A DNA stretch of 56,750 nucleotides, filler included, from Jimgerdemannia flammicorona (GCA_003990765.1; 3 parts of 3 records of this genome joined end to end with filler, not necessarily neighbours in it); one strand, 5' to 3'; counted from the first letter of the whole stretch, positions 1 through 25,247 are shown. Numbers and translations are program-made. The notes: generated by a model not told the origin, from the letters alone.

Positions 1-99
1 CCCTAACCCTAACCCTAACCCTACCCCCAACCCTAACCCTAACCCTAACCCTAACCCTAACCCTAACCCTAACCCTAACCCTAACCCTAACCCTAACCC
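1..99. repeat. Telomeric repeat (CCCTAA)n, left end of contig 1
   Basis: About 16 CCCTAA units from base 1, with two variants (CCCTAC, CCCCAA at 19-30). C-rich strand on + as expected for a left chromosome end. Confidence 0.97.
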
Positions 100-912
100 A
101 CGGCTGTGCCTCCGGCCGCTAAAGCCGTGCCCCCTAAAAAGGGCAAGGCCAAGGTTCCCGGTTCAGTGCCCCAGGCTACGCTTGTGAGATCCAGTGCCGC
201 CAGTCCGTCTCCATCCCCTGCTTCGACCCCCACCCCCCTCAAATCATACGCCGCAGCTGCCAAGAAGGTCTCTATCAAGGATAGGACCCAGGCCTACCCC
301 GAGACAGAAAGGGCAGCTGCTGCCGCCACCCTTTCACACATGACCCACAAGCTGACCTCTCATTTGTCACCGACTGAGAAGGGCACTAGGCTGCAGCGCA
401 TCTACGTTGACGGATTTGCCCATCTGAAGATCGGGCAGATCCGGAAGAACTTGTACGATGTCCATGTGATTTTGTCAAAGGTTCTCAACATGTCATATGT
501 CTCGGCATTGACCATTGAATTCCTGCTCCACCCTGATTATGTCACGGCATTCCAAAAGAAGATGAAGGTGCTTGGGTTCTCGGTGCTGTCGGCCTGGGAC
601 CCTGCGCTCCCACGTAACAAGAATGCCACGGAGGCCATAAAGACACGGGTTCTCTAATCATTCCATGCTCGGGTCCGGCAGTTGGTAGGCAAAGCCACTG
701 CGAAGAGGCCTGAGGTGCAGACCTTCTACAGGGCATGAGCCACGGAACTTGGCCTCACCCTCCCCTCCCCCGCCTCCCCGTTGGCTGGCCCTGCTTCGAA
801 GGCAGGTGGTACTGTGGCCATGACGGGTGATATGGCGATGGATTTGGAAGCCAAAGCTTCCGCCTCAGGTACTTCCCACGCTGTTGGCGCTAACGCGCCT
901 GGCCCCCAATGA
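100..912 (+). pseudogene. ORF1 C-terminal remnant, copy 1
   Basis: Collinear with copy 2 ORF1 (…LQRIYVDGFAHLKIGQIRKNLYDVH…GPQ*). Premature stops from CAA>TAA (655) and TGG>TGA (~737). Confidence 0.9.
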
Positions 913-3900
913 GAGTCGGGTTCCTCAATACACATGGACTACCCCAGGACAAGTTCGATGTGCTCAGTCAGTTGATTTGTCCTGCCCTCGACGTTCTTTT
1001 CATATGTGAAACGTGGCACATTCCACTGAGTCCCTCTCCACTCATTTACATGTCCTCCCCTCCGGCATTGCACAGGATCATGGGTCACCAGAATGGTGGT
1101 CTCGTGGTCCTTGTGTCAAACTGTTTCGCCCCTCTCATTTCCGGGTCCTCCGCCGACCCCTTCCATATCCGGCTCATATTCCAGGGCCTAGCTTTGGTTG
1201 GGGTTTACGCCCCCCCCTCTCTTCCCATTGGTGGTTTCCGTGATCTAGTGTCTGGACCCTTCCCGGGTAAGGCCCTCTTGGTCAGTGACATCAATACCCA
1301 TTTCAGTGCCCACCTTGGTGACATCAACTCTAGTCCTCACGATCGGATGGATGTCGTCGACACCTCCTTGATGACGTGGTCATTGAACCACCTTACCTCG
1401 GTGGCTGGATCCACACACGTTGACCACGCGTTCGCCACCACATCCCTCCATGCGTCCCTCACCTGCTCCACCCCTCCTGTCGCTACCGATCACTCCTCCC
1501 TCCTCACTCTCTCCTTCTCCTTCTCCCCCTCGCCGGTTGCTGCCTTGCCTGGCGTCCGTCATTACTCTGTGAGATACCTGACCGACCCGGCCGTTCAAGC
1601 TCACCTTTGGGAATCAGCGGATATCATTTGCGATACCGTTATTAGATCTATCTACTCTATTAGAGACCACATTGCCGGCTTTTACTCTGTAGATGATCGC
1701 CAGCAATTTGTGTATTCCCTTGATGCTCTTTTGACCTCTGGTCTACAGTCTGTCTGTGAGGACATTCTTGGCTCGTATGACGCAAGAGAAATCAGAGCAG
1801 TGCCGCTCCCTAGGCATGACCTCTTCTGCAGTGCATCTTCGATCTCTGATGCCATCCGTGATTTTAAGCAAGCATATCGCTCCACCCCCTCCGCACCCCT
1901 TCAGTCTCGCTCCCACAATGTCCCTGTGTTCGATGATGTGGTTGCTCACTTTACCATCATCTTCGGCCAGCCGGACGCCTCCCTCCACCTCGATGACTCT
2001 GAAGAGGTCTTCCCCCTTAGCATGGGTGCTCTTGGACTGCAATCTTGGTTTGACCAACCTGTGGTTTGGAGGGCTGTCTGCAGCTACCCCCTCTCTAAGG
2101 CATGTGGTGCCAACTCCTTGCACGTCCGGATCCTTCGGGTGATGGCGGGTGAGAAGGACGCCCCCTGTAGCCTTTCAAAAGCCCTCTCGTTCTTCTTCCA
2201 GATGTGCATGGTCTGGGGGCTCACTCCCCGCCACTGGAACTCAGCCATCATTACCCCGGTCCCCAAGAAGGAGGTATCGCGTACGATCGATCAATTTTGC
2301 CCTATTGCTCTGACTGAAATGTTTCGCAGACTCTTCAAGCAGTGCTTGGAAGGATATGTCAAGAGCCGAGGTGGCCTGACAGAAATGTTGTGCTGCTAAG
2401 GCGGCTTCCGAACCCACTTCTCATCTCTATCTCATGTCCTGTTATCGCACGAGACATGGGCTAAGGGATGGGGCCGCCGTGTCTTCTTGGACCTCCAGCA
2501 GGCGTATGATTGAGTCCCCCTCAAGTGCATTCTTTCTCGCCTTGAGGTGCGAGGTGCCGATGCAGCCCTCCATAGCATTATTCGAAGCCTGTTCAACCAC
2601 TGTTCTTATCAAGTAGTTGTTAATGGCCTCATCACCTCTTCAGTCACCACTGAGCGCGGCCTTTTTCAGGACTCCCTCCTCTCTCCCTGGCTCTTTGATG
2701 TCTTTATCAATCCCCTCGCTGCCTCCTTTGATGAGCAGTTCAAGGAGTACGACTTTCCCCTCGGGCTCTTCTTTGCTGATGATATTGCTCTTACCCCCCG
2801 CACTGCCGCGGAGGGGCAAAGGATGGTTGATTTTTGCGAAGATTGGCTCCAGGTGAATGGTATGGAGCTCAATCCCAAGAAGTGTGGTTGTGTTGGCCCT
2901 GCTGACTGTACTGTGCTGATTGGGGGCGAACCCTGCCCGTGACCCACCTCCTACGTGTACCTAGGCGTGCCATACACCAACAAAGGGTTTGACTTTATCA
3001 ACCTGGCATTGCAGAATGCAGCAAAGGTGGAATGAACTCTTGGGTTCTACTGCGCCCGTGGTCCCCTCTGGTCGCCAATGGTCAAGCTGGCCATCATATG
3101 AACTTTCATCAGGCCTCAGCTGGAGTATGGCCTCCCCCTTCTACGTGCCTCCTGTCCGGCTACTACCACGGGGCTTCAGGTGTTGAAGCATCCCGAGCAG
3201 GTCTTTGATGACGCTGTCGCTTGGGCGGTTGGATTTTCTGGCCATCCCTTGCTCAGCAGTTCGATTCTCGGCCTCTCTTCCTTCCTTTGTCGTACGTCCG
3301 ACCTCTGCTGCATGTTCCAAGCCCACCTAGATTGGTGTAGCAAGTCGGGCAACAACCCCATCGGCCCTCTTAGCGAGCGCTTTGTCATGCGTCCCTGGGT
3401 TCTATCATTGACAAGTTTCAGCATTGGACCTCTTGGCTTGACTTCCTTGACTGGTACTGGGACCTCCATCCCCAGATCCACAAGACTTGCTCGCTCTGCT
3501 CCTTCCTCCAGTCCTTCCTCTGGGATCAGCTGCTGCAGGAATGGGCCTCCTCCTCTCAGGCTCTCGTTCGGTATATTACCCTCAAAGGCCGTTTACAGTT
3601 AAGGGGCACCGATCGCATCCTTTCCTTCCCCCCCCGGCTTGTGCGTTCTGCTCTTACCTAGTGCTATGGCTATTTTGGCCAACCCCGCCCCTGCCCCTGT
3701 GGAGATAAGTTTCATCGTGGCCATCTCCTCAGGTGCGGTCTTCTTGACGATTCATATTCTGCTTTCTGAGGTTCTTCAGATTGAGATGAACAGCTCGACT
3801 GGTTTATTAGTGACGAATGGCAGGAGGAACTTCATTTCTACTCTCTTCATGCTCTTCATGAGACAGCTTACCACGCCATTGATGCCATGTGTAATTCTGG

Positions 3901-3955
3901 TAGCCACCTCGCGGTCGGGTTCTGCCTGACCGAGATTACGAAGATGCTTGGGTGA
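909..3955 (+). pseudogene. ORF2: APE endonuclease + reverse transcriptase + C-terminal CCHC-like motif (~1015 codons, disrupted)
   Basis: APE motifs: FLNTHG, LFICETW, GVYAPP, (G)DINTH, (RI)DHAF, TDH. RT motifs: WNSAIITPVPKK, (R)PIAL, (Q)GGFR, FLDLQQAYD, RGLFQxSLLSPWLF, FFADD, LNPKKC, YVYLG. C-terminus CPCGDKFHRGHLLRC…KMLG*. First 496 codons open, then several C>T stops and at least one frameshift. No RNase H seen. Confidence 0.93.
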
Positions 3956-4351
3956 TCGAGCGATCATACATTTTCTTTACTCCCTTCTTTCCCCTCATTT
4001 GCCCAGGTTGGTTCTCCCACGTTGTTGAGAATGCATTGAGTTATTCATCTCATGTCAGTCATTTGGTGTTTGGTTGACGATATGGTTCATATAGTAGGCG
4101 CCGGGCGAATGTGTATTATATCTTAGTCTTTCTTTCTTTGCTTTTTGCATTTTACTATCTCTATGGCCGTGACAAAATGGTTTTATCCAGCCCGTCCATA
4201 GGGTAGTCACCTCTCTGGCCTTTGTTTTGTACTTCTTAGCTAGTTGTTTGCTTCGCTGGCCTTGTTTTGCTTTTCTCATCTTAGGAGTTTTTGTCTTTTG
4301 TTGCTCCAATGTAACTTGTCTTTTCTACAATGAATAAATTCTTACTTGAAG

Positions 4352-4367
4352 CCTAACCCTAACCTAA
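4352..4367. repeat. Interstitial telomeric spacer between LINE copies 1 and 2
   Basis: CCTAA CCCTAA CCTAA between the 3' end TTGAAG and the 5' end GCCACTCAC. Confidence 0.9.
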
Positions 4368-4467
4368 GCCACTCACGGGATTTCCCCATTTGGCAAGACT
4401 CGGCTTTACAGTCCGAAGCTATTCCAAATTAAGAAAGCAGTCACTTTGATTAGCTAAGCCTCTCATC

Positions 4468-4481
4468 GGGTATAAATACCC
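4468..4481 (+). promoter_or_regulatory. Putative internal TATA box in the LINE 5' UTR
   Basis: GGGTATAAATACC(C) is conserved in all four 5' UTRs (4468, ~7390, ~12412, ~17578). A GGTCACGTGACC palindrome follows at 4516-4527. Confidence 0.55.
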
Positions 4482-4579
4482 CCCTTCTCTATTATTTTTT
4501 CGTTGTACAAACAAAGGTCACGTGACCCACATTTCACAATTTCACAAAACAAACAAACATACCTCCACCTATTTCGGCA

Positions 4580-6057
4580 ATGTCGGCTACCTCCTCTGTC
4601 ATTGGCGATGACAGCTCCGCTACCTGCCTCTTTGCGCGCTTCAGTGTCTCTCTCCGCTGTGCTGAATGTCGCGGCATCAGTCTTCTCTCCCTCGGCTTTG
4701 GCGAGGGTAGCCTTATGGCGATGTGCAGGTCATGCGGGGATGTACGACCGATTTCGATGCAGAAGATGACGAAGAGATTGCGATCTCTTCCGATTTGGAC
4801 CACGATGCCCAGCGCCCCCCCAATTCTCCCACGCCCCCGCCCCTCAATCGGAACAAGCGTGGTCACCCAAACACTAGTTTGGGAATGACCCCGACAGCCG
4901 GTCGTGCGGGCCCCTCAGCCGACCCCGATCTGGTCATGGAGATGGCCACAATAAGGAAGCAGATCTCAGATCTACTGACTCAAGTGGCCGAACTGGCCAA
5001 GATCAACGTCTATCTGATGGCGCAGCTTGCTGTGCATCATGCGCCCACCACCCCCTCATCATCTGGTGCTCCTTCGGGAAGTACCCCCACTGCCCCTTCC
5101 ACATCAGCCCCCCCCAAGTCCTCGGCCCCCCCTCCTACTGGTCCTGCCACGAACACACGGTCGAAGGCCCAGAAACGAGCGGATAAGTGGGCCACTAAAG
5201 CCACCGCGTTACAGTCTGGTGTGCTGCTGAAGAAGGTAACTCCCCAGGCTGTTCCTCTGGCCGCTAAAGCTATGCCCCCTAAAAAGGGCAAGACCAAGGC
5301 TCCCGGGCCAGTGCCCCAGGCTATGCCTGTAGGACCCAGCGCCACCAGTCCGTCTCCATCCCCTGCTTCGACCCCCGCCCCCCCCAAATTGTATGCCGCT
5401 GTTGCCAAAAAGGTCTCTATCAAGGATAGGACCCAGGCCTACCCTGAGATGGAAAGGGCTGCTGCCGCAGCCGCCCTTTCGCGCATGACCCGCAAGCCAA
5501 CCTCTCATTTGTCGCTGACTGAGAAGGGGGCTAGGCTGCAGCGCGTTTACATCGACGGATTTACCCATCTTAAGATCGGGCAGATCCGGAAGAACTTGTA
5601 TGATGTCCATGTGATGTTGTCAAAAGTTCTCAACATGTCGTATGTCTCAGCATCGACCATCGAATTCCTGCTCTGCCCTGATTATGTCACGGTGTTCCAA
5701 AAGAAAATGAAGGCGCTCGGGTTCTTGGTGCTTTCGGCCTGGGACCCTGCGCTCCCACACAACAAGAATGCCATGGAGGCCATGAAAGCACAGGTACTCC
5801 AATCATTCTATGCTCGGGTCCGGCAGTTGGCAGGCGAAGCCACTGTGAAGACGCCCGAGGTGCAGACCTTCTACCGAGCTTGGGCCGCGGAACTTGGCCT
5901 TACTCTCCCCTCCCCCGCCTCTCCATCAGCCGGCCCTGCTTCGAAGGCAGGTGGTACTGTGGCTATGACTGGTGATATGGCGATGGATTTGGAAGCCGAA
6001 GCTTCCACCTTAGGTGCTTCCCACGCTGTTGGCGCTAACGCGCCCGGCCCACAATAA
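4580..6057 (+). pseudogene. ORF1 of the telomeric LINE (best copy; ~499 aa reconstructed)
   Basis: ATG 4580 frame carries CAEC-x18-CRSC. A 22-nt deletion relative to copies 3/4 at ~4756 shifts it into the 444-codon frame 4723-6057. That frame has a coiled-coil-like segment, a P/S/A/K-rich linker and a compact C-terminal domain. Confidence 0.85.
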
Positions 6058-7179
6058 GAGTTGGGTTTCTCAATGCATACGGACTACCCCAGGACAAGTT
6101 CGATGTACTAAGTCGGTTGATTGGTCCTGCCCTCGACATTCTTTTCATATATGAAACATGGCACATTCCACTGCATCCCTCTCCGCTCATTCACATGTCC
6201 TCCCCCCCAGTGTCGCACAGAATTGTGGGTCACCAGAATGGTAGTCTTGTGGTCCTTGTGTCAAACCGTTTTGCCCCCCTCATTTCTGGGTCCTCCGCCG
6301 ACCCCTTCTATATCCGGCTCATGTTCCAGGGCTTGGCTTTGGTTGGGGTTTACGCCCCCCCCTCTCTTCCCATTGGTGGCTTCCGTGATCTGGTGTCTGT
6401 ACCCTTCTCGGATAAGGCCCTTTTGAGCGGTGACATCAATACCCACTTCGGTGCCTGCCTTGGTAATGTCAACTCTGGTCCTCGCGATCGGATGGATATC
6501 ATCGACACCTCCCTGATGATGTGGTCATTGAACCACCTGACCCCGGTGGCTGGATCCACACGCATTGACCACGCGTTCGCCACCGCGTCCCTCCACGCAT
6601 CCCTTACGTGCTCCACCCCTCCTGTCACTACCGACCACCCCTTCCTCCTCACTGTCTCCTTTCTCTTCTCCCCCTTGCCAGTTGCTGCCTTGGCTGGCAT
6701 CCGTCATTACTCTGCGAGATATCTGACTGACTCGGTCATTTAAGCTCACCTTCGGGAATCAGTAGATATCATTTGTGATACTGTTGTCAGATCCATCTAC
6801 TCTGTCAGAGACCACATCGCCGGCTTTTGCTCTGTGGAAGATCGCCAGCAGTTTGTGGATTCTCTTGATGCCCTTTTGACCTCTGGTCTACAGTCAGTCT
6901 GTGAGGACATTCTTGGCTCGTATGATGCAGGAGAAATCAGGGCAGCGCCACTTCCTAGGTGGGACCTTCTTCACAGTGCATCTTCAGTCTCTGATGCCAT
7001 TCGTGGTTTCAAGCGAGTGTATCGCTCCACCCCCTTTGCGCCTCTCCAATCCCACTCCCTCAACGTCCCGGTGTTCGACAACGTGGTTGCTCATTCACCA
7101 CCATCTTCGGCCAACTGGATGCCTCCCTCTATCTCGATGACTCTGAGGATGTCTTCCCCCTCAGCGTGGGTGCTCTTGG
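6054..7179 (+). pseudogene. ORF2 APE domain remnant, copy 2
   Basis: ETWH, GVYAPP, LSGDINTHF, TRIDHAF, TDH. Start ATG mutated to ATA. Truncated by the deletion. Confidence 0.88.
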
Positions 7180-7278
7180 TTCGCTGGCCTTGTTTTGCTT
7201 TTCTCATCTTAGGAGTCTTTATCTTTTGTTACTCTGATGTACCTTTCTTCTCTATAATGAACAAATCCTTACTTGAAG

Positions 7279-7289
7279 CCTAACCCTAA
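7279..7289. repeat. Interstitial telomeric spacer between copies 2 and 3
   Basis: TTGAAG|CCTAACCCTAA|GCCACTGAC. Confidence 0.9.
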
Positions 7290-10200
7290 GCCACTGACAT
7301 GATTTCCCCATTTGGCTAGACTCAGCTTTACGGCCCGAAGCTATTCCAAATTAAGAAAGCAGTCACTTTGATTAGCTAAGCCTCCCATCGGGTATAAATA
7401 CCCCCCTTCTACATTATTTTTTCGTTGCACAAACAAAGGTCATGTGACCCGTATTTCACAATTTTACAAATACAAACAAACACACCTTCGCCTATTCCGG
7501 CAATGTCAGCCACCTCCTCCGTCATCAGCGATGATGGCAATACCACCTGTCTCTTTGTGTACTTCGGCGTCTCTCTCCGCTGCGCTGAATATCGCGGCGT
7601 CGGTCTTCTTTCTCTTAGCTTCGGCAAGGGTAGCCTTACGGTGATGTGTAGGTCATACGGGGATGCATGACCGATCTCGTCATATTTATCTTCCCTGCAT
7701 GATGCGGAAGATAACGAAGAGATTGCGATCTCTTCCAATTCAGACTACGATGCCCAGCGCCCCCCGTACTCTCCCACACCCCTGCCCTCAACCGGAACAA
7801 GCGCGGTCACCCGAACACTAGTTTGGGAATGATCCCAATGTCCAGTCATGTGGGCCCCTCAGCCGACCCCGATCTGGTCATGGAGTTGGCCACAATGAGG
7901 AAGCAGATCTCAGATCTGCTGACTCAGGTGGCTAAACTGGCCAAGATCAACACCCAGCTGATGGCGCAGCTTGCTGCACATCATGCACCCACCACCCTCT
8001 CATCATCTGGTGCTCCTTCGGGAAGTACCCCTGCCGCCCCTTTCACATCTGCCCTCCCCAAGTCCTTAGCCCCCCCTCCTACTAGTCTTGCCATGAAAAT
8101 ACAGTCAAAGACCCAAAAGTGAGTGGACAAGCGGGCGGCTAAAGCCACCGCATGGCAGTCTGGTGTGCTGCCAAAGGAGATAACTCCCATGGCTATGCCT
8201 TCGGCTGCTAAAGCCACACCCCCTAAAAAGGGCAAGGCCAAGGCTCCCGGGCCAGTGCCCCAGATTACGCCTGTGGGACCCAGTGCCACCGGCCCGTCTT
8301 CGTCCCCTGCTTTGACCCCTGCCCCCCACAAATCTTACGCCGCCACCACCAAGAAGGTCTCTATCAAGGATAGGACTCAGGCCTACCCCAAGACGGAAAG
8401 GACAGCTGCTGCTGCCGCCCTTTCATGCATGACATGTAAGCCGACCTCTCATTTGTCGCCGACTGAGAAGGGAGCTAGGCTCCAGTGCATTTATGTTGAC
8501 GGATTTGCCCATCTTAAGATTGGGTATTTCCGGAAGAACTTGTACAACGTCCATGTGTTGTTGTCAAAAGTTCTCAACATGTCATATGTCTGAGAGTCGA
8601 CCATCGAATTTCTGCTCTGTCTTGATTATGTTATGGTATTCCAAAAGAAAATGAATGCGCTCGGGTTCTCAGTGCTATTGGCCTGAGACCCTGCGCTCCC
8701 ATGCAACAAGAATGCCATGGAGGCCATGAAGATACTGCGAAGAGGCCCAAGGTGCAGACCTTCTACCGAGTTTGGGCTGTGGAACTCGGCCTAGCTCTCC
8801 CCTCCCCCGCCTCCCCATCGGCCAGCCCTGCTTCAGGGGCAGGTGGTACTGTGGCCATGACAGGTAATATTGCAATGGATTTGGAAGCTGAAGCTTCTAC
8901 CTCAGGTGCTTCACATGGTGTTGGCACTAACGCGCCCGGCCCATAATGAGAGTCGGGTTTCTTAATACATATGGACTATCCCAGGACAAGTTCAATGTGC
9001 TCAGTCGGTTGAATGGTCCTGCCCTCGACATTCTTTTTGTATGTGAAATGTGGCAGATCCCACTGCGTCCCTCTCTACTCATTCACATGTTCTCTCCTCC
9101 AGCGTCACATAGGATCGTGGGTCACCAGAATGGTGGTCTCATGGTCCTTGTGTCAAACCGTTTCGCCCCCCTTATTTCTGGGTCCTCTGCCGACTCCTTC
9201 CATATCCTGCTCATGTTCCAGGGCCTGGCTTTGATTGGGTTTATGCCCCCCCCCCTCTTGCCATTGGTGGCTTTCATGATCTGGTGTCTGATTCCTTTCC
9301 GGGTAAGGCCCTTCTGATCAGGGACATCAATACCCACTTCGGTGCCCGCCTTGGTGACATCAACTCTGGTCCTCGTGATCGGATAGATGTCATCGACACC
9401 TCCTTGATGACATTGTCATTGAACCACCTGACCCCAGTGGCTAGATCCACACGTTTTGATCATGCGTTTGCCACCGCATCCCTCGTTGCTACCAATCACT
9501 CCTCCCTCCTCACTATCTCCTTTCCTTTCTCCCCCTTGCCGGTTGCTGCCTTGGCTGGCATCTGTCGTTACTCTGCGAGATATCTGACAGATCCAGTCAT
9601 TCAAGCTCACCTTTGGGAATCAGCAGATATCATTTGTGATACCGTTATCAGGTCTATCTACTCTGTCAGGGACCATATCACCGGCTTTCGCTCCGTGGAA
9701 GATCGCCAGCAGTTTGTGGATTCTCTTGATGCTCTTTTGACCTCTGGTCAACAGTCAGTCTGTGAGGACATTCTTGGCTCATATGATACAAAAGAAATCA
9801 GAGCAGCACTGCTCCCTAGGCAAGACCTCCTTCACAGTGTATCTTCAGTCTCTGATGCTATCCATGGTTTTAAGTGAGCATACCACTCTACCCCCTCCAT
9901 GCCTCTTCAGTCTCGCTCCCCCAATGTCCCAGTGTTCAATGACGTGGTTGCTCATTTGACCACCATCTTCAGCCAACCAGATGCCTCCCTTCGCCTCGAT
10001 GACTCTGAGGATGTCTTCCCCCTCAGCATGGGTGCTCTTGGACTGCAGTCTTGGTTCGACCAACCTGTGGTTTAGAGAGCTGTCCGCAGCTACCCTTTCT
10101 CAAAGGTATGTGGTGCCAACTCCTTGTATGTCCAGATCCTTCGGGTGATGGCAGGTGAGAAGGACGCCCCCTGTAGTCTTTCGAAGGCCCTCTCATTCTT

Positions 10201-12301
10201 CTTCCAGATGTACATTGTCTGTGAGCTCACTCCCCATCACTAGAACTCAGCCATCATTACCTCAATCCCCAAGAAGGAGGAATCGCGAACGATTGATGAA
10301 TTTCGCCCTATTGCTCTGACTGAAATGTTTCATAGACTCTTCAAGCAGTGTTTGGAAGGATACATCAAGAGCCGAAGTGGCCTGACAGAAATATCGCACT
10401 GCCAAGGTGGCTTCCGAACCCACTTCTCGTCCCTCTCTCATATCGTGTTATCGCACGAGACGTGGGCTAAGAGATGGGGCCACCATGTCTTTTTGGACCT
10501 CTGGTAGAAATATGATTGAGTCCCTCTCAAGTGCATTCTTTCCTGCCTTAAGGTGCGAGATGCTGATGCAGTTCTCCATAGTATTATTTGAAGCCTGTTC
10601 AACCACTGTTCTTATCAGGTAGTTGTTAATGGCCTCGTCACCCCTTCGGTCCCCACTGAGCGTGGCCTTTTTCAGGCTTTGATGAGTGGTTCAAGGAGTA
10701 CAACTTCCCCCTTGGGCTTTTATTTGCTGATGATATCGCCCTTACCCCCCGCATTGCCACTGAAGGGCAAAAGATCATTGACTTTTGCAAGGACTGACTC
10801 CGGGTGAATGGTATGGAACTCAATCCCAAGAAGTGTGGTTATGTTGGCCCAGCTGACTGTACTGTGCTAATTGGGGGCGAACCCTGCCCATGACCCACCT
10901 CCTATGTGTACCTGGGTGTGCCGTATACTAATAAAGGATTTGACTTTGTCAATCTTGCGTTGCAGAATATGGCGAAGATAGAATGAACTCTTAGGTTCTG
11001 CTGTGCCCATGGTCCTCTCTGGTCACTAATGGTCAAGTTGGCCATCATACGAATATTCATCAGGCTTCAGCTGGAGTATGGCCTCCCCCTTCTATGTGCT
11101 TCCTGTCTGGCTACTACCACGGGGCTTCAGGTATTGAAGCGTCCTGAGCAGGTCTTTGATGACGCTGTTGCTTGGGTGGTTGGATTTTCTGGCCAGCCCT
11201 TGCTTGGCAGCTCGATTCTTGGCCTCCCTTCCTTCCTTCATTGCACGTCTGACCTCTGCTACATATTCCAAGCCCACCTGGATTGGTGTAGTAAGTCGGG
11301 CAACAACCCCATCGGCCCCCTTAGCGATCACTTTGTCATGCGTCCCCCAGGTTCTATCTTTGACAAATTCTGGTGTTGGATCTCTTGGCTTGACTTCCTC
11401 GACTAGTATTGGGACCTTTGTCCCCAGGTCCACAAGACTCACGCACTCTGCTCCTTCCTCCAGTCTTTCCTTTAGGATCAGCTACTGCAGGAATGGGCTT
11501 CCTCCTCCCAGACTCTCGTTCAGTATATCACCCCCAAAGGCCGTTTGCGGTCACAGGGCGCTGACCACATCCTTTCCTTCCCCCCCCCGGCTTGTGCGTT
11601 CTGCCCTTGCCTAGTGCTATGGCTATTTTGGCCAATCCCACCCCTGCCCCTGTGGAGATAAGTTTCATCATGGCTATCTCCTCAGGTGCAGTCTTCTCGA
11701 TGGTTTGTACTCTGCGTTCCAAGGTTCTTCTGATCGAGATGAACAACTCGATTGGTTTACCAATGATGAATAGTAGGAGGAACTTCACACCTACCTTCTT
11801 CACACTCTTCACGAGACAGCCTACCATGCTATAGACACAATGTGTAATTCTGGTGGCCACCTTGCGGTCGGGTTCTGCCCGACCAAGATTATGAAGATGC
11901 TTGGGTGATCAAGCGATCACACATTTTCTTTACTCCTTTCTCTCCTCTCATTTGTCCCGGTTGGTTCCCCCCATTATTGAGAGTGTATTGAGTTATTCAT
12001 CTCATTTCAGTCGTTTGGTATTTAGTTGTTGATATGGCTCATGTAATTGGCGCCAGGTGAATGTGTATTATATCTTAGCCTTCCCTTTCTTTGCTTTACA
12101 TTTATTATCTTTACGGCCATGACAAAATGGTTTTATCCAGCCTGTCCATAGGTTGGTCACCTCTCTGGGCTTTGTTTTGTACTTCTTAGCTAGTTGTTTA
12201 CTTCGCTGGCCTTGTTTTGCATTTTTCATCTTGGGAGTCATTGCCTTTTATTGCTCTGATGTACCTTATCTTCTCTACAATGAATAAATTCTTACTTGAA
12301 G
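7290..12301 (+). mobile_element. Telomeric LINE copy 3 (near full length, degenerate)
   Basis: ORF1 ~7503-8949 and ORF2 ~8946-11908 with many stops. Small deletions at ~8732, ~9485 and ~10677 (the last removes the RT xSLLSP motif). Same 5' and 3' termini as the other copies. Confidence 0.93.
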
Positions 12302-12312
12302 CCTAACCCTAA
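12302..12312. repeat. Interstitial telomeric spacer between copies 3 and 4
   Basis: TTGAAG|CCTAACCCTAA|TCACTT. Confidence 0.88.
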
Positions 12313-15300
12313 TCACTTATATGATTTCCCCATTTGGCTAGACTCAGCTTTACGGCCTGAAGCTATTCCAAATTAAGAAAGCAGGAGCTATGATTACCTA
12401 AACCTCTCATCGGGTATAAATACCCCCCTTTCCCATTATTTTTTCAATGCACAAATAAAGGTCATATGACCAGCATTTCACAATTTCACAAAAATAAACA
12501 AATAAACCTCTGCCTATTTCAGCAATGTCAGCCATCTCCTCTGTCATCAGTGATGACAGCAATGCCACCCGTCTCTTCATGCACTTCGGTGCTTCCCTCC
12601 ACTGTACTGAATGTTGCGGTATCAGTCTTCTCTCTGTCGGCTTTGGCAAGGGTAGCCTTATAGTGATATGCAGGTTATGCAAGGATGCACAACCGATATC
12701 GTTGTATTTATCTTCCCTGTGTGACGTGGAAGATAACAAAGAGATCTCGATCTCTTCTGATTCAGACCATAACGCCCAGTGCCTCCCCTTTTCTCCCATG
12801 CCCGCCCCTCAATTGGAACAAGTGTGGTCACCCAAACACTAGTTTGGAAATGACCCTGACGGCCGACGGAGCCCCTCAGCTGACCCCAATCTGGTCACAG
12901 AGATGGCCATGATGAGGAAGCAGATCTCGGATCTACTGACTCAAGTGGCCAAATTGGCCAAGATCAATGCCCAGCTGATGGTACAGCTTGCTACGCGATC
13001 TGTGCCCACCGCCCCCTTGTCATCTGGTGCTCCTTTGGGTAGTACCCCTGCTGTCTCTTCTACATCTGCTCCCCCCAAGTCCTCGGCCCCCCCTTTTACT
13101 GATCCTGCCGCGAACACGCAATTGAAGGCCCAGAAGCGAGCAGACAAGTGGGCCACTAAAGCTGCTGCATTACAGTCTGATGCACCACCAAAAGAGATAA
13201 CTCCCATGGCTATGCCTCAGGCTGCTAAAGCCGCGCCCCCTAAAAAGGGCAAAGCCAAGGCTCCCGGGCCAGTGCCCCAGGTTATGCCTGTGGGACCCAG
13301 TGCCGCCGGTCTGTCTTCATCCCCTGCTTTGACCCTCGCCTAATCCAAATCATCTGCTACCGCTACCAAGAAGGTCTCTATCAAGGCTAGGACCCAGGCC
13401 TACCCTGAGACAGAGAGGGCTGCCAGTGCCACTGCTCTCTTATATATGACCCGCAAGCCAACCTCTCATTTATCACCCACTGAAAAGGGCACTAGGCTAC
13501 AGTATGTTTACATTAACAGATTTGCCCATCTTAAGATCGGATAGATCTGGAAGAACTTGTACAACGTCCATATAATGTTGTCAAAAGTTCTCAATATGTC
13601 GTACGTCTTGGCATTGACCATCGAATTCCTGCTCTGCTTGATTATATCATGGTGTTCCAAAAGAAGATGAAGGTGCTCAGGTTCTCGGTGCTGTCAGCCT
13701 GAGACCCCATGCTCCCCTGCCACAAGAATACCATGGAGGCCATGAAGACACAGGTACTCCAATCATTCCATGCTCGGGTCCGGTAGTTGGCAGACAAAGC
13801 CACTGCGAAGAGGCCGGAGGTGCAGACCTTCTACATAGCTTGGGCCACAGAACTTGGCCTTACTCTCCCCTCCCTCACTCCCCTACTGGCTGGCCCTGCT
13901 TCAAAGGCAGGTGGTACTGTGGCCGTGATGGGTGCAATGGTGATGGATTTGGAAGCTAAAGCTTCCTTCTCAGGTGCTTCCCACACTATTTGTACTAATG
14001 CACCTGGCCCACAATGAGAGTTGGGTTCCTCAATGCATACTAACTATCTCAGGACAAGTTTGATGTGCTTAGTTGGCTGATTGGTCCTGCCCTCAACATT
14101 CTTTTCGTATGTGAAATGTGGCACATTCTGCTGCATCCCTCTCCGCTCATTTACATGTTTTCTCTCCTGGCATCGCACAGGATCATGGGCCACCAGAACG
14201 GTGGTCTCATAGTTCTTGTGTCAAACCGTTTTGCCCCCCTTATTTCCAGGTTGTCCACTGATCCCTTCCATATCCAGCTCATGTTCCAGGGCTTGGCTTT
14301 GGTTGGGGTTTATGCTCTCCCCTCTCTTCTTATTGGTGGCTTCCATGATCTTGTGTCTGGACCCTTCTGGGTAAGACCCTTCTGATTAGTGATATCAATA
14401 CCCACTACAGTGCCTGCCTTGGTGATGTCAACTCCAGTCCCCGTGATCAGATGGATGTCATTGACACCTTCCTGATGACGTGGTCACTGAACCACCTAAC
14501 CCCGGTGGCTGGATCTACATACGTTGACTATACATTTGCCAATGTGTACCTCAACATGTCCCTCACATGTTCTACTCCTCCTGTCGCTACCGAGCACCCC
14601 TCACTCCTCACTGTCTTCTTTCCCTTCTCTCCCTCACCAGTCGCTACCTTAGCTGGCGTCCATTGTTACTCTGTGAGATATCTGACCAATCCAGTCATCC
14701 AAGCTCACCTTTGGGAATTAGCGGATATCATGTGCGATATCATTGTCAGGTCCATCTACTCTATCAGGAACCATTTTGCTGGCTTTTGCTCTGTGGAAGA
14801 TTGCTAGCAGTTTGTAGATTCTCTTGATGCCCTTTTGACCTCTGGTCTACAGTCAGTTTGTGAGAACATTCTTGGCGATCAGGGCAGCACCACTCCCTCA
14901 GCAGGACCTTCTTCGCAGTGCATCTTCAGTCTCTGATACTATCTGTGGTTTCAAGCGAGCATACCACTCCACCCCCCTTACTTCCCTCCAATCCCACTCC
15001 CCCAATGTCCTGGTGTTTGATGATGTGGTTACTCACTTTACCACTATCTTCGGTCAACCAGACGCCTCCCTCCACCTTGATGACTCTAAGGATGTCTTCT
15101 CTCTCAGCGTGGGTGCTCTTAGACTACAGCCTTGGTTTGACCAATCTGCGGTTTGGAGGACTATCCACAGCTACCCCCTCTCAAAGGCATGTGGTGATGA
15201 CTCCTTGCATATCTGGATTCTTTAGATGATGGCAGGCGAGAAGGATACCCCCTGTAGCCTCTCGAAAGCCCTTTCATTCTTCTTCCTGATGTGCATAGTT

Positions 15301-17436
15301 TGGGGGCTCACTCCCCGCCACTGGAATTCTGCCATCATCTCCCTTGTCCCCAAGAAGGAGGAATTATATACAATTGATGGATTTCGCCCTATTGCTCTAA
15401 CTGAAATGTTTTGTAGACTCTTTGAGCAGTATTTGGAAGGATATGTCAAGAGCCGAAGTGGCCTGACAGAAATGTCGCACTGCCAAGACAGCTTCCAAAC
15501 CTGCTTCTCATCTCTCTCTCATATCTTGCTATCACACGAGATGTGGGCCAAGGGATGGGGCCACCGTGTCTTTCTGGACATCTGGCAGGCATATGACTGA
15601 GTCCCCCTCAAGCTTATTCTTTCTCGACTTGAGGAGTGAGGTGCTGATGCAGCCCTCCTTAGCATTATCCGAAGCCTGTTCAACCATTGTTCTTACTAGG
15701 TGGTTATTAATGGCCATGTCACCCCTTCGGACCCCACTGAGCATGGCCTCTTTTAGAGCTCCCTCCTCTCTCTCTGGCTGTTTGATGTCTTTATCGATCC
15801 CCTCGTCGCCTCCTTTGATGATCAGTTCAAGGAGTATGACTTCCCACTTTGGCTTTTCTTTGCTGATGATATCACCCTTACTCCCCGCACTGCTACTGAA
15901 GGGCAAAGGATGGTTGATTTTTGCAAAGATTGGCTTCGAGTGAATGGTATGGAGCTCAACCCCAAGAAGTATGGTTATGTCGGTCCGGCTGACTGTACTG
16001 TACTGATTGGGAGTGAACCCTGCCTGCAACCCACCTCCTACGTGTATCTGGGTGTGCTGTACACCAATAAAGGGTTTGACTTTGTCAGCCTTATATTGCA
16101 GAATGTGGCAAAGGCAGAATGAACTCTTGGGTTCTGCCATACTCATGATCCTCTCTGGTTGCCAATGGTCAAGTTGGCTATCATACGAACGTTCATCAGG
16201 CCTCAGCTGGAGTATGGCCTCCCCTTTCTATATATCTCCTGTCCGGCTACTACCACGGGGCTTCAGGTGTTGAAGCATCTCAAGCAGGTCTTTGATGATG
16301 CTGTTGCTTGGGCGGTTGGATTTTCTGGCTATCCTTTGCTTGACAGTTTGATTCTCGGCCTCCCCTCCTTTCTCCGTTGTATCTCTGACCTCTGCTGCAT
16401 GTTCCAAGCCCACCTGGATTGGTGTAGCAAGTCGGACAACAACCCTATCAGCTCCCTTATCAAGTGCTTTGTCATGCATCTCCCAGGTTCCATTATTGAC
16501 AAGTTCCAACATTGGACCTCTTGGCTTGACTTTCTTGACTGGTACTGGGACCTCCATCCCTAGATCTGCAAGACTTGCTTGCTCTGCTCCTTCCTCCAGT
16601 CATTCCTTCGGGATCAGCTGCTCCAGGAATAGGCCTCCTTCTCTCAGGCTCTCATTCGGTATATCACCCCCAAAGGCCGCTTGCGGTTGCGGGGTGCCGA
16701 CCGTGTCCTCTCCTTCCCTCTCTGGCTTGTACATTCCACCCTCACCTGGTGTTATGACTACTTTGGCCAACCCTGCCCCTGCCCCTGTAGAGATAAGTTT
16801 TATCATGGCCATCTCCTCAGGTGTGCCCTTCTTGATAGTTTGTATTCTGCTTTCCAAGGTTCTTCCGATCGAGATGAACAACTCGATTGGTTTTCCAGTA
16901 ATGAATGGCAGGAGGAACTTCATGCCTACCCTCTTCACGCTCTTCACGAGATAGCCTACCATGCTATTGATGCCATGTGTAATTCTGGTGGCCACCTCGC
17001 AGTTAGGTTCTACCTGGCTGAGATTATAAAGATACTTGGGTGATTGAGCGATCGAACATTTTCTTTACTTTTTTCTTTCCTCTCATTTGCCTTGGTTGGT
17101 TCCCCCTATTGTTGAGAATGCATTGAGTTATTCATCTCATATCAGTCATTTGGTGTTTGGGTGTTGATACAGTTCATATAGTTAACGCTGGGCAAATGTA
17201 TATTATATTCTAACTCTCCTTCTTTTTGCTTTTGTATTTATTATCTTTATGGCTGTGACAAAATGGTTTTATCCAGCCCATCTATAGAGTGGTCACTTCT
17301 CTGGCCTTTGTCTCATACTTCTTAGCTAGTTATTACTTCACTGGCCTTGTTTTGCTTTTCTCATCTTAGAAGTCTTTGTCTTTTGTTACTCCGATATACC
17401 TTGTCTTCTCTACAATGAATAAATTCTTACTTAAAG
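12313..17436 (+). mobile_element. Telomeric LINE copy 4 (full length, degenerate)
   Basis: ORF1 12525-14017 and ORF2 14014-17043 (FFADD at ~15856; CPCRDKFYHGHLLRC…KILG*). 3' UTR with AATAAA. Confidence 0.93.
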
Positions 17437-17477
17437 CCTAACCCTAACCCTGACCCTGACCCTAGCCCCTAACCTAA
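17437..17477. repeat. Degenerate interstitial telomeric tract between copies 4 and 5
   Basis: CCTAA CCCTAA CCCTGA CCCTGA CCCTAG CCCCTAA CCTAA. Confidence 0.9.
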
Positions 17478-17678
17478 GCCACTCACGTGATTTCCCCATT
17501 TGGCTAGACTCGGCTTTACAGCCTGAAGCTATTCCAAATTAAGAAAGCAGTCACTTTGATTTGCTAAGCCTCTCATTGGGTATAAATACCATCTTCTCAA
17601 TTATTTTTTTATTGTATAAACAAAGGTCATGTGACCTGCATTTCACAATTTCACAAACAAACAAACATATCTCCACCT
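17478..17678 (+). mobile_element. Telomeric LINE copy 5, 5' UTR only (interrupted by a SINE-like insertion)
   Basis: Matches 4368-4570. Homology stops at CTCCACCT, just before the ORF1 ATG. Confidence 0.88.
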
Positions 17679-18854
17679 CAGCTCCTTTCTCTGCTACCTT
17701 ACTGGTCACAAGATTTGGTAGGTGACCTTCTGAGTCCTTTTTCCCCTTTTATTACCCCCTCTACCTCGGATTGGTTTGCTGTTCCTGTAGAGGTATAGTA
17801 GGAGGAGGGCAATGGTGATGAGTTGCCCCTTTATCGGTGTCAGATCGGTGCTTTATCCACTTTTTCGCAGATTCTAGTGCCTTTAACTATATCTGGGATA
17901 TACCCGTTTAGGTGCGGTATCTTCTTTCTTTTGCCGTCGCAAACAAGGAGTTGTCTTGGTATTTCTCGGGCTACGTAGGGAGTCGGCCGACCTTGAGCGT
18001 CAAGTGCTCAGTGTAGGTTATCTACAGGTTCTCAGTGCCTGTGGTAGAGCCCTCTGGCTTTGGTGAGCTTTCCGGTGAGTGCAGTTCTAGCATAGGTGAC
18101 TGCTTTTCGGGTGTTGTCGGGATGGGAGGGGAGATGGCCATCATAGATAGGTGGAAGGGTGATTACAGTGAACCAGTAGGGTGCCAGGCTGGGGGCGGTC
18201 ATCGGGGCTGGGGCAGGTACTGCTTCGGTGGGGCCTTTTGATTGGTGCAGTATGATTAGGTGGTAGGTGTCACTATCAGCTTCTTTTGGCAGTCAGCAAG
18301 GTTGGGCCCCAGTCATCAGAGAGGGTCAGGAGGCCCAAGGCTACCCATTTCAGGCGTCTTGGCTGCACTCAACTGGAACTGGGAGCTGACATGGCAACAT
18401 GATCGAGGCCCGCAGGCTTAAGTAGTGGGGTATTGGGGGTTTCCTCCTACCTCACGTATAAGTCCTTTACTTACCTCATCTGGGAGAACCAGGCCCTACC
18501 TACCATGTTGAGCTTTGATGAGGGTTTTTATTTGCCTATCATTCTCTTTGGGGTGGCAGGGGCTATTCTATTCGACTCAGGCATGGCCTTGTATATACGT
18601 TGGGTTCTCAGGCATGCACTTTCAGTTGTTGGCATATGGATGGGTTTCCCCTGATAGTAGGGAGAGCATGGTGTGCAGAATGAGGTGCAGGCTTATCAGC
18701 TCTGCTGCACCTGGTATGGTCGAGCTGCTGGACAATAGCTAGCCTAGATTAATGTGGGGGCAGTACTTGGTGAGTGGTTGGAGAGGGTTTTGCCCTATAT
18801 AGTCTAGGTTCCCTTCCAATAAAAATCTGTGGGACATGAGTCCATTAAAAAAAA
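17679..18854 (+). mobile_element. ~1.2-kb polyadenylated non-autonomous retroposon (SINE-like), copy A
   Basis: Reverse-complement match to 19305-20493 and direct match to 46155-47359. Starts CAGCTCCTTTCTCTGCTACC and ends AATAAA…GAGTCCATT(A)n at the contig end. Confidence 0.85.
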
Positions 18855-18954: not shown

Positions 18955-19060
18955 CCTAACCCTTAACCCTAACCCTAACCCTAACCCTAACCCTAACCCT
19001 AACCCTAACCCTAACCCTAACCCTAACCCTAACCCTAACCCTAACCCTACCCGTCCCTTA
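18955..19060. repeat. Telomeric repeat (CCCTAA)n, left end of contig 2
   Basis: About 15 CCCTAA units, then degenerate CCCTAC CCGT CCCTTA at the inner edge. Confidence 0.95.
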
Positions 19061-19063
19061 TCA

Positions 19064-20950
19064 ATGTACAACTATCTTCCATCTATCCAATCCATGATAT
19101 CCATCAATATACCAGAGAGAGTTTGGTCACTCAACCCAATAGACTCATCACTGAATACTCTTAGCCCATCGTATAGAGATACCAATAAGATCTATTACTT
19201 ATAAGGCTCTTCGAATTCGATGTTAAGAAATATGTATTCCTTGGCTTCACAATACTCCAGTTAGAGTTCACTCTCCACTATAAGTATCTGTTGTCTACTT
19301 AAGATTTTTTTTTTTTTTTTGTTTAACGGACTCTATGTCCCGCGGAATTTTATTGGAAGGGAACCTAGACTGTATAGGCCAAAACTCTCCCCCACCACCC
19401 ATCAAGCACTGCCCCACCATTAACCTAGGCTAGCTATTGTCCAGCAGCTCGACCATACCAGGCGCAGCAGGGCAAATAAGCCCACACCTCGTTCTGCATA
19501 CCATGCTCTCCCTACCATCAGGGGAAACTCAGCCATACGCTAACGACCAAAAGCGCACACCTGAGAACCCAATGTATGTACAAGGCCACGCCCGAGCTAA
19601 ATGGAATAGCCCCTGCCACCCCAAAGAGAATGACAGGCAAAGAAAAACCCTCATCAAAGCACAACATGGTGGGTAGGGCCTGGTTCTCCCAGTCGAGATG
19701 AGTAAAGGACTTACACGTGAGGCGGGAGGAGACCCCCAATACCCCACTACTCAAGCCTGCGGGCCTCGATCACGTTGCCGTGTCAGCTCCCGGTTCCAGT
19801 TGAGTGCAACCAAGACGTCTGAAATGGGTAGCCTCGGGTCCACCGACTCCCCCTGACGACTGGGGCCTCACCCCGCTACCCGCCAAAAGAAGCCGAGAGT
19901 GACACCTACCACCTAACCGCACCGCACCAATCAAAAGGCCCCACCGAAGCAGCACCCGCCCCAGCTCCGACGACCACCCCCAGCCTGGTACCCTACTGGT
20001 TCACCGTAATTGCCCTTCCGCCTATCTGTGACGGCCATCTCCCCTCCCATTCCGACAACACCCAAAAAGCAGTCACCTATGCCAGAACCGCGCTCGCCGG
20101 GAAGCTCGCCAAAGCCAGAGGGCCCCACCACAGGCACCGAAGACCTGCAGGTAACCTACACTGAGCACTTGATGCCCAAGGTCGGCCGACTCCCTACGTA
20201 GCCTGAGACACACTGAGACAACTCCTTGTTGGCAACGGCAAAAGGAAGAAGGTACCGCACCAAAATGGGTACACCCCAGATGCAGCTGAAGGTACCAGAA
20301 TCCGCAAAAAAGTGGAGGAAGCACCAATCTGACACCAATAAAAGGGCAACTCATCACCATTGCCCTCCTCCCACCATGCCCCTGCAGGCACAGCAAACCA
20401 ACCCGAGGTAGAGGGGATAATATAAGGGGAAAGGGGACTCGGAAGGTCGCCTACCAAACCTTGTGACTGGTAAGGTAGCAGAGAAAGGAGCTGTTGTCTA
20501 CTTAAGATGCCTTATCATATTCTCCAGATCAGTATCAGAAATATCTGTCCATTGTCTACAGATTCTATAATCATGTAATCATCTCTTGATAGTTGATTCT
20601 GAGACATCAAAGAGTCACGCAATATCAGAATTTGTTAGACACTCTTCTACATTGGCAATAAGAATCTCCTTGCTGATAAGATAGCCTGGACATCCACCTT
20701 GTCCAGTCTAAATAACTTATAGTTGAATAGGTAATAGTGCAACTTCATCTGCATCAATATGAGTATAGATTCTAAGAAGCAGTAAATGGGCAAAGTCAAA
20801 ATTGCTCTAGATCCATGTATCAGGCAATAGAGTTGCAAAGCGATTGAGATTATTTGCAAGCTGATCCAATAAAGAAGATAGAGGTCTAATTCAGGATGAT
20901 CACTATTATTTCACAAGTTCAATACATTTTGAGCATCTTGTATAATTTGG
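19064..20950 (-). pseudogene. Integrase-core (IS3EU-like) transposase pseudogene, split by the SINE-like element and truncated by the telomere
   Basis: Manual minus-strand translation with the insertion removed: TGQGGCPGYLI…IA*LFDVSESTIKR*L (HTH-like)…ISDTDLENMI…GE*TLTGVL*SQGI…RIRRAL*VID…VYWVE*PNSLWYIDGYHGLDRWKIVVH. This resembles the PNSLWHIDGxHKLxRWxxVxHG motif. The upstream boundary is approximate. Confidence 0.75.
19305..20493 (-). mobile_element. ~1.2-kb polyadenylated non-autonomous retroposon (SINE-like), copy B (youngest)
   Basis: Poly(T) at 19305-19320. Perfect target-site duplication TTGTCTACTTAAGA at 19291-19304 and 20494-20507 (extendable to 18 bp). CpGs are retained. Confidence 0.9.
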
Positions 20951-25230: not shown

Positions 25231-25247
25231 CCTATCCCTAGCCCTAG
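25231..25247. repeat. Fossil (degenerate) telomeric tract
   Basis: CCTAT CCCTAG CCCTAG immediately 3' of LINE copy 6. Confidence 0.75.

Follow-up and report, generated by a model that had tools for sequence, protein, structure and literature searches.

A 56,750-nucleotide (nt) stretch of DNA from Jimgerdemannia flammicorona (GCA_003990765.1), hereafter the window, carries at a chromosome end a head-to-tail array of one long interspersed nuclear element (LINE). The array begins directly behind the terminal (CCCTAA)n repeats, and the 3' end of the element runs into telomere repeat in a constant register. On sequence matches and modelled folds, the element is assigned as a LINE with two open reading frames (ORFs), of which ORF2 has an N-terminal apurinic/apyrimidinic endonuclease-like (APE) domain and a LINE reverse transcriptase (RT). 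We propose, with a probability of roughly 0.7, that it represents a two-ORF family of retrotransposons without long terminal repeats (LTRs) that is specialised for telomere repeats. Its copies would most likely be inserted by priming at an APE nick, re-capped by telomerase and stacked into arrays.

The terminal array and its junctions

The window consists of three contigs joined by N...TTAATTAATTAA...N spacers, namely contig A (1-18854), contig B (18955-37804) and contig C (37905-56750). Contigs A and B both start with the C-rich telomere strand, which is the orientation expected for a left chromosome end, and the window contains 36 occurrences of CCTAACCC, where 1.68 would be expected. Copies of the element were mapped by blastn of copy 4 (12313-17436, the longest) against the window, and their junctions were read individually:

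1-99, plus strand: terminal telomere tract of contig A, (CCCTAA)n as the C-rich strand, variant over 19-30; meets copy 1 through a CCC microhomology
100-4351, plus strand: copy 1 (c1), 5'-truncated, without the first 888 nt, corresponding to 889-5122 of c4; least decayed
4352-4367, plus strand: interstitial telomere tract between c1 and c2, CCTAACCCTAACCTAA, 16 nt
4368-7278, plus strand: copy 2 (c2), complete 5' end (GCCACTCACGGG...) and 3' end, internal deletion of ~2.2 kb; longest ORF1 (4723-6057)
7279-7289, plus strand: interstitial telomere tract between c2 and c3, CCTAACCCTAA, 11 nt
7290-12301, plus strand: copy 3 (c3), near full length
12302-12312, plus strand: interstitial telomere tract between c3 and c4, CCTAACCCTAA, 11 nt
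12313-17436, plus strand: copy 4 (c4), full length, ~5.12 kb
17437-17477, plus strand: interstitial telomere tract between c4 and c5, 41 nt, with variant repeats CCCTGA and CCCTAG
17478-17678, plus strand: copy 5 (c5), a 201-nt 5' stub broken off by an unrelated 1.18-kb repeat
18955-19052, plus strand: terminal telomere tract of contig B, (CCCTAA)n
21596-25230, plus strand: copy 6 (c6), on contig B, 5'-truncated, positions 1410-5122 of c4; most decayed
25231-25247, plus strand: degenerate telomere tract 3' of c6, CCTATCCCTAGCCCTAG, followed by non-repeat DNA

All copies lie on the plus strand with the 5' end toward the terminal repeat (c1-c5 on contig A, c6 on contig B), and the sense strand of the element is always the C-rich telomere strand. 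The two telomeric contigs hold 6/6 copies, and blastn found none on contig C. The 3' ends read ...AATGAATAAATTCTTACTTGAAG/CCTAACCC (the slash marks the joint), and the register ...GAAG/CCTAACCC is constant in 5/5 window junctions, with the joint of c6 reading ...GAAG/CCTATCCCTAGCCCTAG. No poly(A) or other A-run was found at the five window 3' junctions that were read, and AATAAA lies 12 nt upstream of the joint. Full 5' ends read CCTAA/GCCACTCACGGGATTTCCCC; the register CCTAA/GCCACT is kept in three of four, with c4 being 1 nt shorter. The truncated c1 meets the terminal repeats at a CCC that is common to repeat and element. Pairwise identity among the copies is 78-87%.

The first-pass annotation of this DNA had described five consecutive copies of ~5 kb. 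Consecutive copies of one element are indeed present, as four substantial copies (two of them near full length) plus a 201-nt stub. The head-to-tail arrangement directly behind (CCCTAA)n with all 5' ends distal was confirmed by blastn and junction reading, and the reported separation by 11-41 nt of telomeric repeat agrees with tracts of 16, 11, 11 and 41 nt. The annotation had also noted a sixth copy of the same polarity and 3' junction on another telomeric contig. This copy has both features; its tract is degenerate, and ~2.5 kb of other sequence parts it from the contig B telomere, so that it has no direct cap.

All copies in the window are dead. The ORF2 region contains 6 stops in c1, 10 in c3, 9 in c4 and 14 in c6; frameshifting indels relative to c1 as the reference number 4 in c3, 3 in c4 and 7 in c6, and c2 has lost most of ORF2. 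Private changes, defined as sites where one copy differs and all others agree, amount per site to 4.4% in c1, 4.1% in c2, 6.1% in c3, 7.6% in c4 and 12.2% in c6, a measure that also counts source-lineage differences and is not a clock. C>T plus G>A changes reach 2.2%, 2.8%, 4.0%, 5.3% and 8.4% in the same order. The least decayed copy thus lies at the tip and the most decayed inward, which matches the prediction of successive end addition. G+C falls inward along the array, and the decay pattern is a GC-to-AT transition bias that grows inward. We rejected repeat-induced point mutation (RIP) as the cause of this fall, given TpA/ApT ratios of 0.56-0.80, (CpA+TpG)/(ApC+GpT) ratios of 1.39-1.54 and only a mild CpA enrichment of C>T; it is also disfavoured because the likely host, a member of Mucoromycota, is not of a RIP lineage.

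Two further observations concern the array sequence. The 1.18-kb repeat that interrupts c5 has an AATAAA...poly(A) end and occurs on all three contigs (17679-18854, 19317-20493 in reverse and 46157-47329; 75-87% identity). It resembles either an independent retroposon of the poly(A) type or another LINE's 3' portion, and contig A terminates inside its A-run. In addition, a TATA-like box (GGGTATAAATACC) lies ~100 nt inside the 5' end of c2-c5 (4469-4481, 7391-7403, 12413-12425 and 17580-17592). If this box drives transcription, the RNA would miss the first 100-150 nt of the element.

Coding capacity and relatives

What does the element encode? The coding regions are described for c1, the least decayed copy:

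909-3440, plus strand: ORF2 (APE, linker, RT), read in one frame against residues 4-855 of the intact relative P0001, with 5 in-frame stops
909-1613, plus strand: APE (EEP) endonuclease domain of ORF2, with N, E, Y, D-x-N, D-H and D-H all present
97-657, plus strand: C-terminal part of ORF1, ending at a premature stop, with the motif RIYVDG...VLNMSYVS

Pfam detects RVT_1 in c1 (within 2514-2942, E 2.3e-11) and gives no EEP match for the N-terminal ORF2 part of the window copy alone. A search of 5.8 billion proteins returned only seven relatives, at 24-33% identity. In the alignment of relatives, N12, E39, Y105, D132, N134, D177/H178 and D199/H200 are invariant, and among eight aligned members PF03372 is matched in four and RVT_1 in seven. 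The family profile aligns with human L1 ORF2p from residue 6 of the endonuclease (EN) to residue 802 of the RT (E 5e-44), and in this alignment the family motifs coincide with the L1 motifs LN.nGL, qET, iYaP, GDFNT, iDH and SDH. The best solved RT matches of the profile are L1 ORF2p and R2. An AlphaFold model of the first 244 residues of ORF2 has a mean confidence (pLDDT) of 79.8, and its top solved folds are R1Bm EN, L1 EN, TRAS1 EN (rank 13) and APE1. The ORF1 plus APE-RT organisation given in the first-pass annotation is thus upheld by the L1 ORF2p profile match, the R1Bm, L1 and TRAS1 EN folds and the position of ORF1 upstream of ORF2. A search of the ESM Atlas returned generic RT and EEP clusters only. 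In an alignment of the APE domains of 12 members (A4), the last (S/T)DH motif has N, L, V and V in place of its D in loci L001, L006, L008 and L010, respectively, with the H kept.

ORF2 ends in a short C-terminal Cys-His motif. A C-terminal restriction-enzyme-like endonuclease was not seen, the nuclease being the N-terminal APE domain, and no explicit search for the motif pattern of such an enzyme (CCHC...RHD...E...R/KPD) was made. No RNase H domain (PF00075) is listed for the 24 family proteins P0001-P0024, and several out-of-family matches have PF00075. In the I group, which includes Tad1, RNase H is typically found downstream of the RT, as described in passages of one article (PMC4640811). 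Membership in the Tad1 clade was rejected on this domain. An endonuclease-deficient Penelope-like identity was also ruled out, by the APE domain and by the best solved RT matches to LINE ORF2p and R2.

ORF1 of the relatives is a separate frame of 416-674 amino acids just upstream of ORF2, as it is in c2 at 4723-6057, and it contains the conserved region RVYV.G...ILNISYVS. Weak coiled-coil noise aside, no Pfam family was matched in ORF1 at E 0.1 or better, and no zinc knuckles were detectable. The ORF1 model has a low overall pLDDT of 58. It shows a long, confidently modelled helix at 68-105 and then, as the fold of the conserved region, a beta-alpha-beta-beta-alpha-beta unit at 273-337. ORF1 appears to combine a coiled coil with a small domain of alpha/beta type. 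A fold search gave no PDB match at E 0.001 or better, and its weak rows include domains resembling the RNA-recognition motif, an identity that is only a lead for the modelled unit.

The family is well delimited. A five-member profile scores P0003-P0024 at 446 bits or more, and beyond the family edge the scores are at most 312 bits. The family branch has a support of 100 in a FastTree phylogeny of 71 rows, and a quick IQ-TREE run on 42 rows, which left out near-duplicate loci and most RT-only loci, recovers a 33-row clade with an SH-aLRT support of 99. This clade holds the window copy and all telomere-flanked loci, which are spread over both main subclades. Its neighbours are a group with an Absidia glauca protein and a group with locus L020, in trees that hold unnamed relatives and a few 'jockey-like' named proteins. 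Almost all family members come from metagenome or run assemblies, and one 90% cluster includes a protein of Leptodontidium sp., a helotialean ascomycete. The family thus seems to span two fungal phyla, Mucoromycota with the window host and Ascomycota with Leptodontidium sp.

A scan of metagenome contigs yielded 80 loci, of which 19 are family-level (aligned over APE and RT) and 61, aligned over the RT core only, serve as a control. A strict test sought the 12-mer CCCTAACCCTAA with at most one mismatch downstream of ORF2. A sense-strand telomere repeat was found in 8/19 family loci (L001, L004, L005, L007, L009, L013, L015 and L017), lying 100-1087 nt past the ORF2 match and with none on the G strand; the 61 control loci gave no sense-strand match and two G-strand matches (L020 and L036). 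Inspection added degenerate or short tracts in L003 (AATAAGACCTTAAAG/CCTAAATAACCCTAAAGG) and L018 (CTTAACTCCTAAC), and L006 opens with an upstream copy's 3' end, followed by CCTAACCCT and by the 5' end of its own element. The contigs of L008, L010, L012, L016 and L019 end before the position where their closest kin carry the tract, and inspection found no telomere tract at L002, L011 and L014. The contig ends of L003 overlap by 123 nt, which points to a head-to-tail array with a 5460-bp unit. In the printed 3' ends, AATAAA precedes the tract by 1-15 nt in L001, L004, L005, L006, L007, L009, L013 and the window; L003 has the variant AAATAAG, and L015 and L017 have no AATAAA nearby. ORF2 is open, with 0 stops, in 16 of the 19 family loci, including L001, L005, L007 and L009. 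The presence of sense-strand telomere 3' ends in independent relatives indicates that repeat targeting is a family trait and not a single-locus accident.

Several relatives show additional repeats around the joint. Right after the 3' telomere tract, L004 (8651-8860) and L007 (4490-4730) carry 7-8 tandem units of 29-30 nt with CCCTAACCCTC-like sequence, which recall the variant-repeat tandem arrays at the 5' ends of MoTeR and FoTeR; none occur upstream of these L004 and L007 elements. In L001, a duplicated unit of 118 nt that lies upstream of the element (1-240) contains the 11-mer CCTAACCCTAA, and this 11-mer is found again after a downstream unit of ~400 nt, which then restarts (5341-5804). 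These units may be short non-autonomous partners that use the same joint. In the neighbouring LINE lineage, L020, which groups with P0025, ends ...GCAATAAAGAACTGTATGATG/TTAGGGTTAGGG (4300-4345), that is, in the opposite telomere strand. It may represent a second telomere-targeting lineage of reversed orientation, like SART relative to TRAS, as judged from one locus with two repeat units.

The remainder of the window holds few recognisable features. A tyrosine-kinase-like protein kinase gene on the minus strand of contig B (33432-34781) is the sole host gene found in the window; it is 59% identical to an Endogone protein, and its next named matches are from Jimgerdemannia and Dentiscutata. These matches point to an Endogonales-like member of Mucoromycota as the probable host. 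Adjacent minus-strand ORFs on contig C (38382-39407) match dUTPase (E 1e-19) and the first part of an RT domain and, by these matches, are assigned to a decayed LTR-type retrotransposon pol with dUTPase. At 54640-54715, ~2 kb short of contig C's right end, lies a decayed G-strand telomere-like tract (GGGTTAGGTTCAGAGTTGGGTTCAGG...GGGGTTAGGTTCAGG) that may be an old internalised telomere; no element copy adjoins it. An Rfam scan of the window gave no match at the gathering threshold.

Insertion mechanism and competing explanations

How could such an array arise? In the mechanism that we favour, a Pol II transcript would be cleaved in the first telomere bases or immediately behind them, shortly past AATAAA, and its 3' end would therefore carry a few telomere-like bases. 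These bases would pair with the G-rich strand, which would offer a priming 3' OH ending ...TTAGG. The 3' OH would most likely come from a nick made by the element's own APE in duplex TTAGGG repeats, as for TRAS/SART, and less likely from a natural or eroded chromosome end. Reverse transcription would add the element distal to the remaining repeats, telomerase would cap the new 5' end, and repeated rounds would build the array. The CCC joint of c1 resembles, by analogy, the seeded telomerase healing of truncated MoTeR elements, which was found at 17/23 truncated copies (PMC7367193). Long internal repeat tracts would later break and be lost, as in MoTeR arrays, leaving 11-41 nt. In those arrays, according to passages of the same article, internal tracts of at least three repeats undergo frequent breakage, and stable tracts contain no more than two (PMC7367193), so that old arrays would keep only short tracts.

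Several observations weigh against this proposal. The uniformly short tracts (at most 41 nt in the window and up to ~30 nt in relatives) pose the chief difficulty for random nicking, which in a telomere of ~100 nt needs a later loss of long tracts. The replacement of the D of the last (S/T)DH in about 4/12 relatives makes the nuclease requirement uncertain family-wide. L002 and L011, which lie inside the clade, have A-rich ends and no telomere repeats. In c6, L013, L015, L017 and L018, a short tract is followed by non-repeat DNA, which fits an element that carries a telomere-like 3' tail. L004 has ribosomal DNA (rDNA), not telomere repeat, upstream of ORF1: 5.8S rRNA (1676-1826) and positions 24-664 of the large-subunit rRNA (2747-3189) lie directly upstream in the same orientation, with TAACCCTAG at the joint. 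This copy either sits in or beside rDNA or carries a reverse-transcribed piece of pre-rRNA at its 5' end. Finally, the distribution of copies is seen in a window of three contigs, and interstitial copies with ordinary flanks are possible.

Some of these points would be expected if priming needed no nuclease. The telomere-like 3' bases of the RNA would then pair with the G-strand overhang at natural, short or broken ends, as in endonuclease-deficient Penelope-like elements, with an attachment functionally like that of HeT-A/TART, and APE would be dispensable or serve another step. Nearly eroded ends would leave proximal tracts as short as those observed (11, 11, 16, 41 and 17 nt in the window, up to ~30 nt in relatives). 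The 11-mer CCTAACCCTAA recurs in two of four window tracts and three times in L001, c6, L017 and L018 abut non-telomeric DNA after a minimal tract, and the final (S/T)DH has lost its D in some relatives. However, the APE domain of intact relatives is still open and shows no change in the other catalytic residues, a sign of selection acting on the nuclease, and the short tracts are equally explained by the breakage of tracts of at least three repeats that was measured in MoTeR arrays (PMC7367193, as above). We regard nuclease-free end priming as doubtful, though deserving of serious attention. A related and rather improbable view is that of an old LINE lineage across Mucoromycota and Ascomycota that has telomere repeats as its only home and itself extends chromosome ends as a telomerase back-up, with the neighbouring lineage of L020 on the opposite strand, so that the two would parallel the TRAS/SART pair. 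Its RNA would begin and end with telomere-like bases, and a new copy would prime on the end of the previous one, yielding the recurrent 11-nt joint CCTAACCCTAA, or on eroded or broken ends.

The telomeric position itself could in principle be incidental. An ordinary dispersed LINE with a telomere-like microsatellite as its 3' tail could pile up in subtelomeres under weak selection and form an array via recombination, break-induced replication or tail insertion. Some LINE families do end in simple repeats, and the rDNA next to L004, the A-rich ends of L002 and L011 and the two identical 11-nt junction tracts in the window are all in line with such an origin. Identical junctions in MoTeR arrays were interpreted as duplication by D-loop extension (PMC7367193). 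The array, however, is directly terminal and strictly polarised, and its members differ in structure (truncation, internal deletion) and in decay, so that they are not simple duplicates. Moreover, the register is fixed at the 5' joints with telomere repeat as well, the non-telomeric contig C has no copy, and 8/8 strict matches among relatives from different assemblies agree in the strand and the position of the repeat. These observations make a dispersed LINE very unlikely. An assembly artefact, which the first-pass annotation had named as a possible refutation, would have joined reads from several chromosome ends or from one repeated element. Contig A is short (18.9 kb), is all repeats and ends in the poly(A) of another repeat. 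Nevertheless, divergence among the copies is 13-22%, and their truncations, deletions and tract lengths are distinct; each junction is thus a unique sequence, and a collapsed or duplicated assembly is unlikely. Since the same junction type is also seen in relatives from independent assemblies, we give an artefact almost no weight. We retain a telomere-specialised LINE with insertion probably primed by an APE nick as the best account of the array.

Relation to known telomeric elements and significance

In function and layout, the element is closest to MoTeR/FoTeR, and in enzymology it is closest to TRAS/SART and Tx1-1_ACar. TRAS and SART of Bombyx mori (R1 clade) are likewise two-ORF LINEs with an N-terminal APE nuclease, and they occupy telomeric repeats in fixed orientation and register, alongside telomerase-type repeats. 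The APE model of the window family has the EN structures of TRAS1 and R1Bm among its best-matching folds. TRAS and SART have poly(A) tails and lie in opposite orientations. The window element differs from them in its fungal host, its TTAGGG repeats and its 3' end, which runs straight into the repeat with no poly(A), and its ORF1 is without detectable zinc knuckles or a Pfam match. Tx1-1_ACar of Anolis (Tx1 clade) is an APE-type element whose target repeat is TTAGGG; it is an animal element of another lineage and is compared with the window element by description only. In passages of the cited articles, telomeric repeats are the targets of TRAS/SART (PMC7265360, PMC10088271), and Tx1-1_ACar is listed among the inserters into telomeric tandem repeats (PMC10088271).

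The fungal elements MoTeR1/2 (Pyricularia oryzae), FoTeR (Fusarium oxysporum) and Cnl1 (Cryptococcus) share with the window head-to-tail arrays with distal 5' ends, no poly(A), a small number of telomere repeats behind the 3' end with roughly one at the 5' end, truncated copies capped by telomerase at small seeds and decayed copies beside intact ones, as described in parts of two articles (PMC12857005, PMC7367193). Passages of the former report that three to seven repeat units follow the 3' end of MoTeR/FoTeR, with one at the 5' end, and that these elements, whose restriction-like nuclease is C-terminal, cluster with Cnl1, SLACS and CRE (PMC12857005). MoTeR, FoTeR and Cnl1 have one ORF, with the RT followed by this restriction-enzyme-like nuclease, whereas the window family has ORF1 and an N-terminal APE; its RT, unlike that of these CRE-clade elements, has L1 ORF2p as the best solved-structure match. 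The different ORF layout and nuclease suggest that the common end architecture is convergent and not due to descent.

HeT-A, TART and TAHRE of Drosophila also form polarised head-to-tail terminal arrays with the 3' end centromere-ward and the youngest copy distal. Drosophila is described as lacking telomerase repeats and as having elements that terminate in oligo(A), whereas canonical repeats both cap the window array and separate its copies; furthermore, unlike for HeT-A/TART/TAHRE, no host dependence is shown for the window element. The endonuclease-deficient Penelope-like elements Coprina and Athena and a 3.4-kb 'family 4' of Zymoseptoria tritici have 1-3 TTAGGG units at the 3' end, point this end away from the telomere and are restricted to subtelomeres; passages of the report on the Zymoseptoria family interpret it as a nuclease-free Penelope-like element (PMC4522978). 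These elements have no endonuclease and a Penelope-type RT, in contrast to the APE domain and LINE-type RT of the window element.

The fungal telomere-targeted LINEs found in print, namely MoTeR, FoTeR, Cnl1 and the Cnl1-like elements of Malassezia, all have a restriction-like nuclease and belong to the CRE clade, and the first-pass annotation was correct in placing MoTeR and Cnl1 there (PMC12857005). It had also recognised no earlier description of an APE-type telomere LINE in a fungus. A full-text literature search, which did not cover Repbase, Dfam or subscription journals, found no such element, and MoTeR1 was the sole fungal entry in the lists of telomeric elements in the literature searched. 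As Repbase and Dfam lay outside the search, this status is provisional. APE-type telomere specialists have so far been described from insects and a lizard. The annotation's further suggestion of retrotransposon-assisted chromosome-end extension is not supported by the window, in which every copy is dead and ordinary repeats form the cap. At both of these ends the family has died out, and its behaviour is that of a niche parasite rather than of a proven device for telomere maintenance; the sole support for a role as an end-maintenance aid is that ~17.6 kb of this chromosome end is made of the element.

A separate APE lineage with an end architecture near that of MoTeR, namely no poly(A), a telomere-repeat 3' joint, a distal 5' end and short internal tracts, would clearly exemplify convergent occupation of the telomere niche. 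The intact relatives in public assemblies offer material for learning how an APE nuclease and an RNA 3' end set the choice of TTAGGG as a target. Given that internalised telomere tracts destabilise chromosome ends in Pyricularia, such elements may shape the subtelomeres of mycorrhizal and soil fungi.

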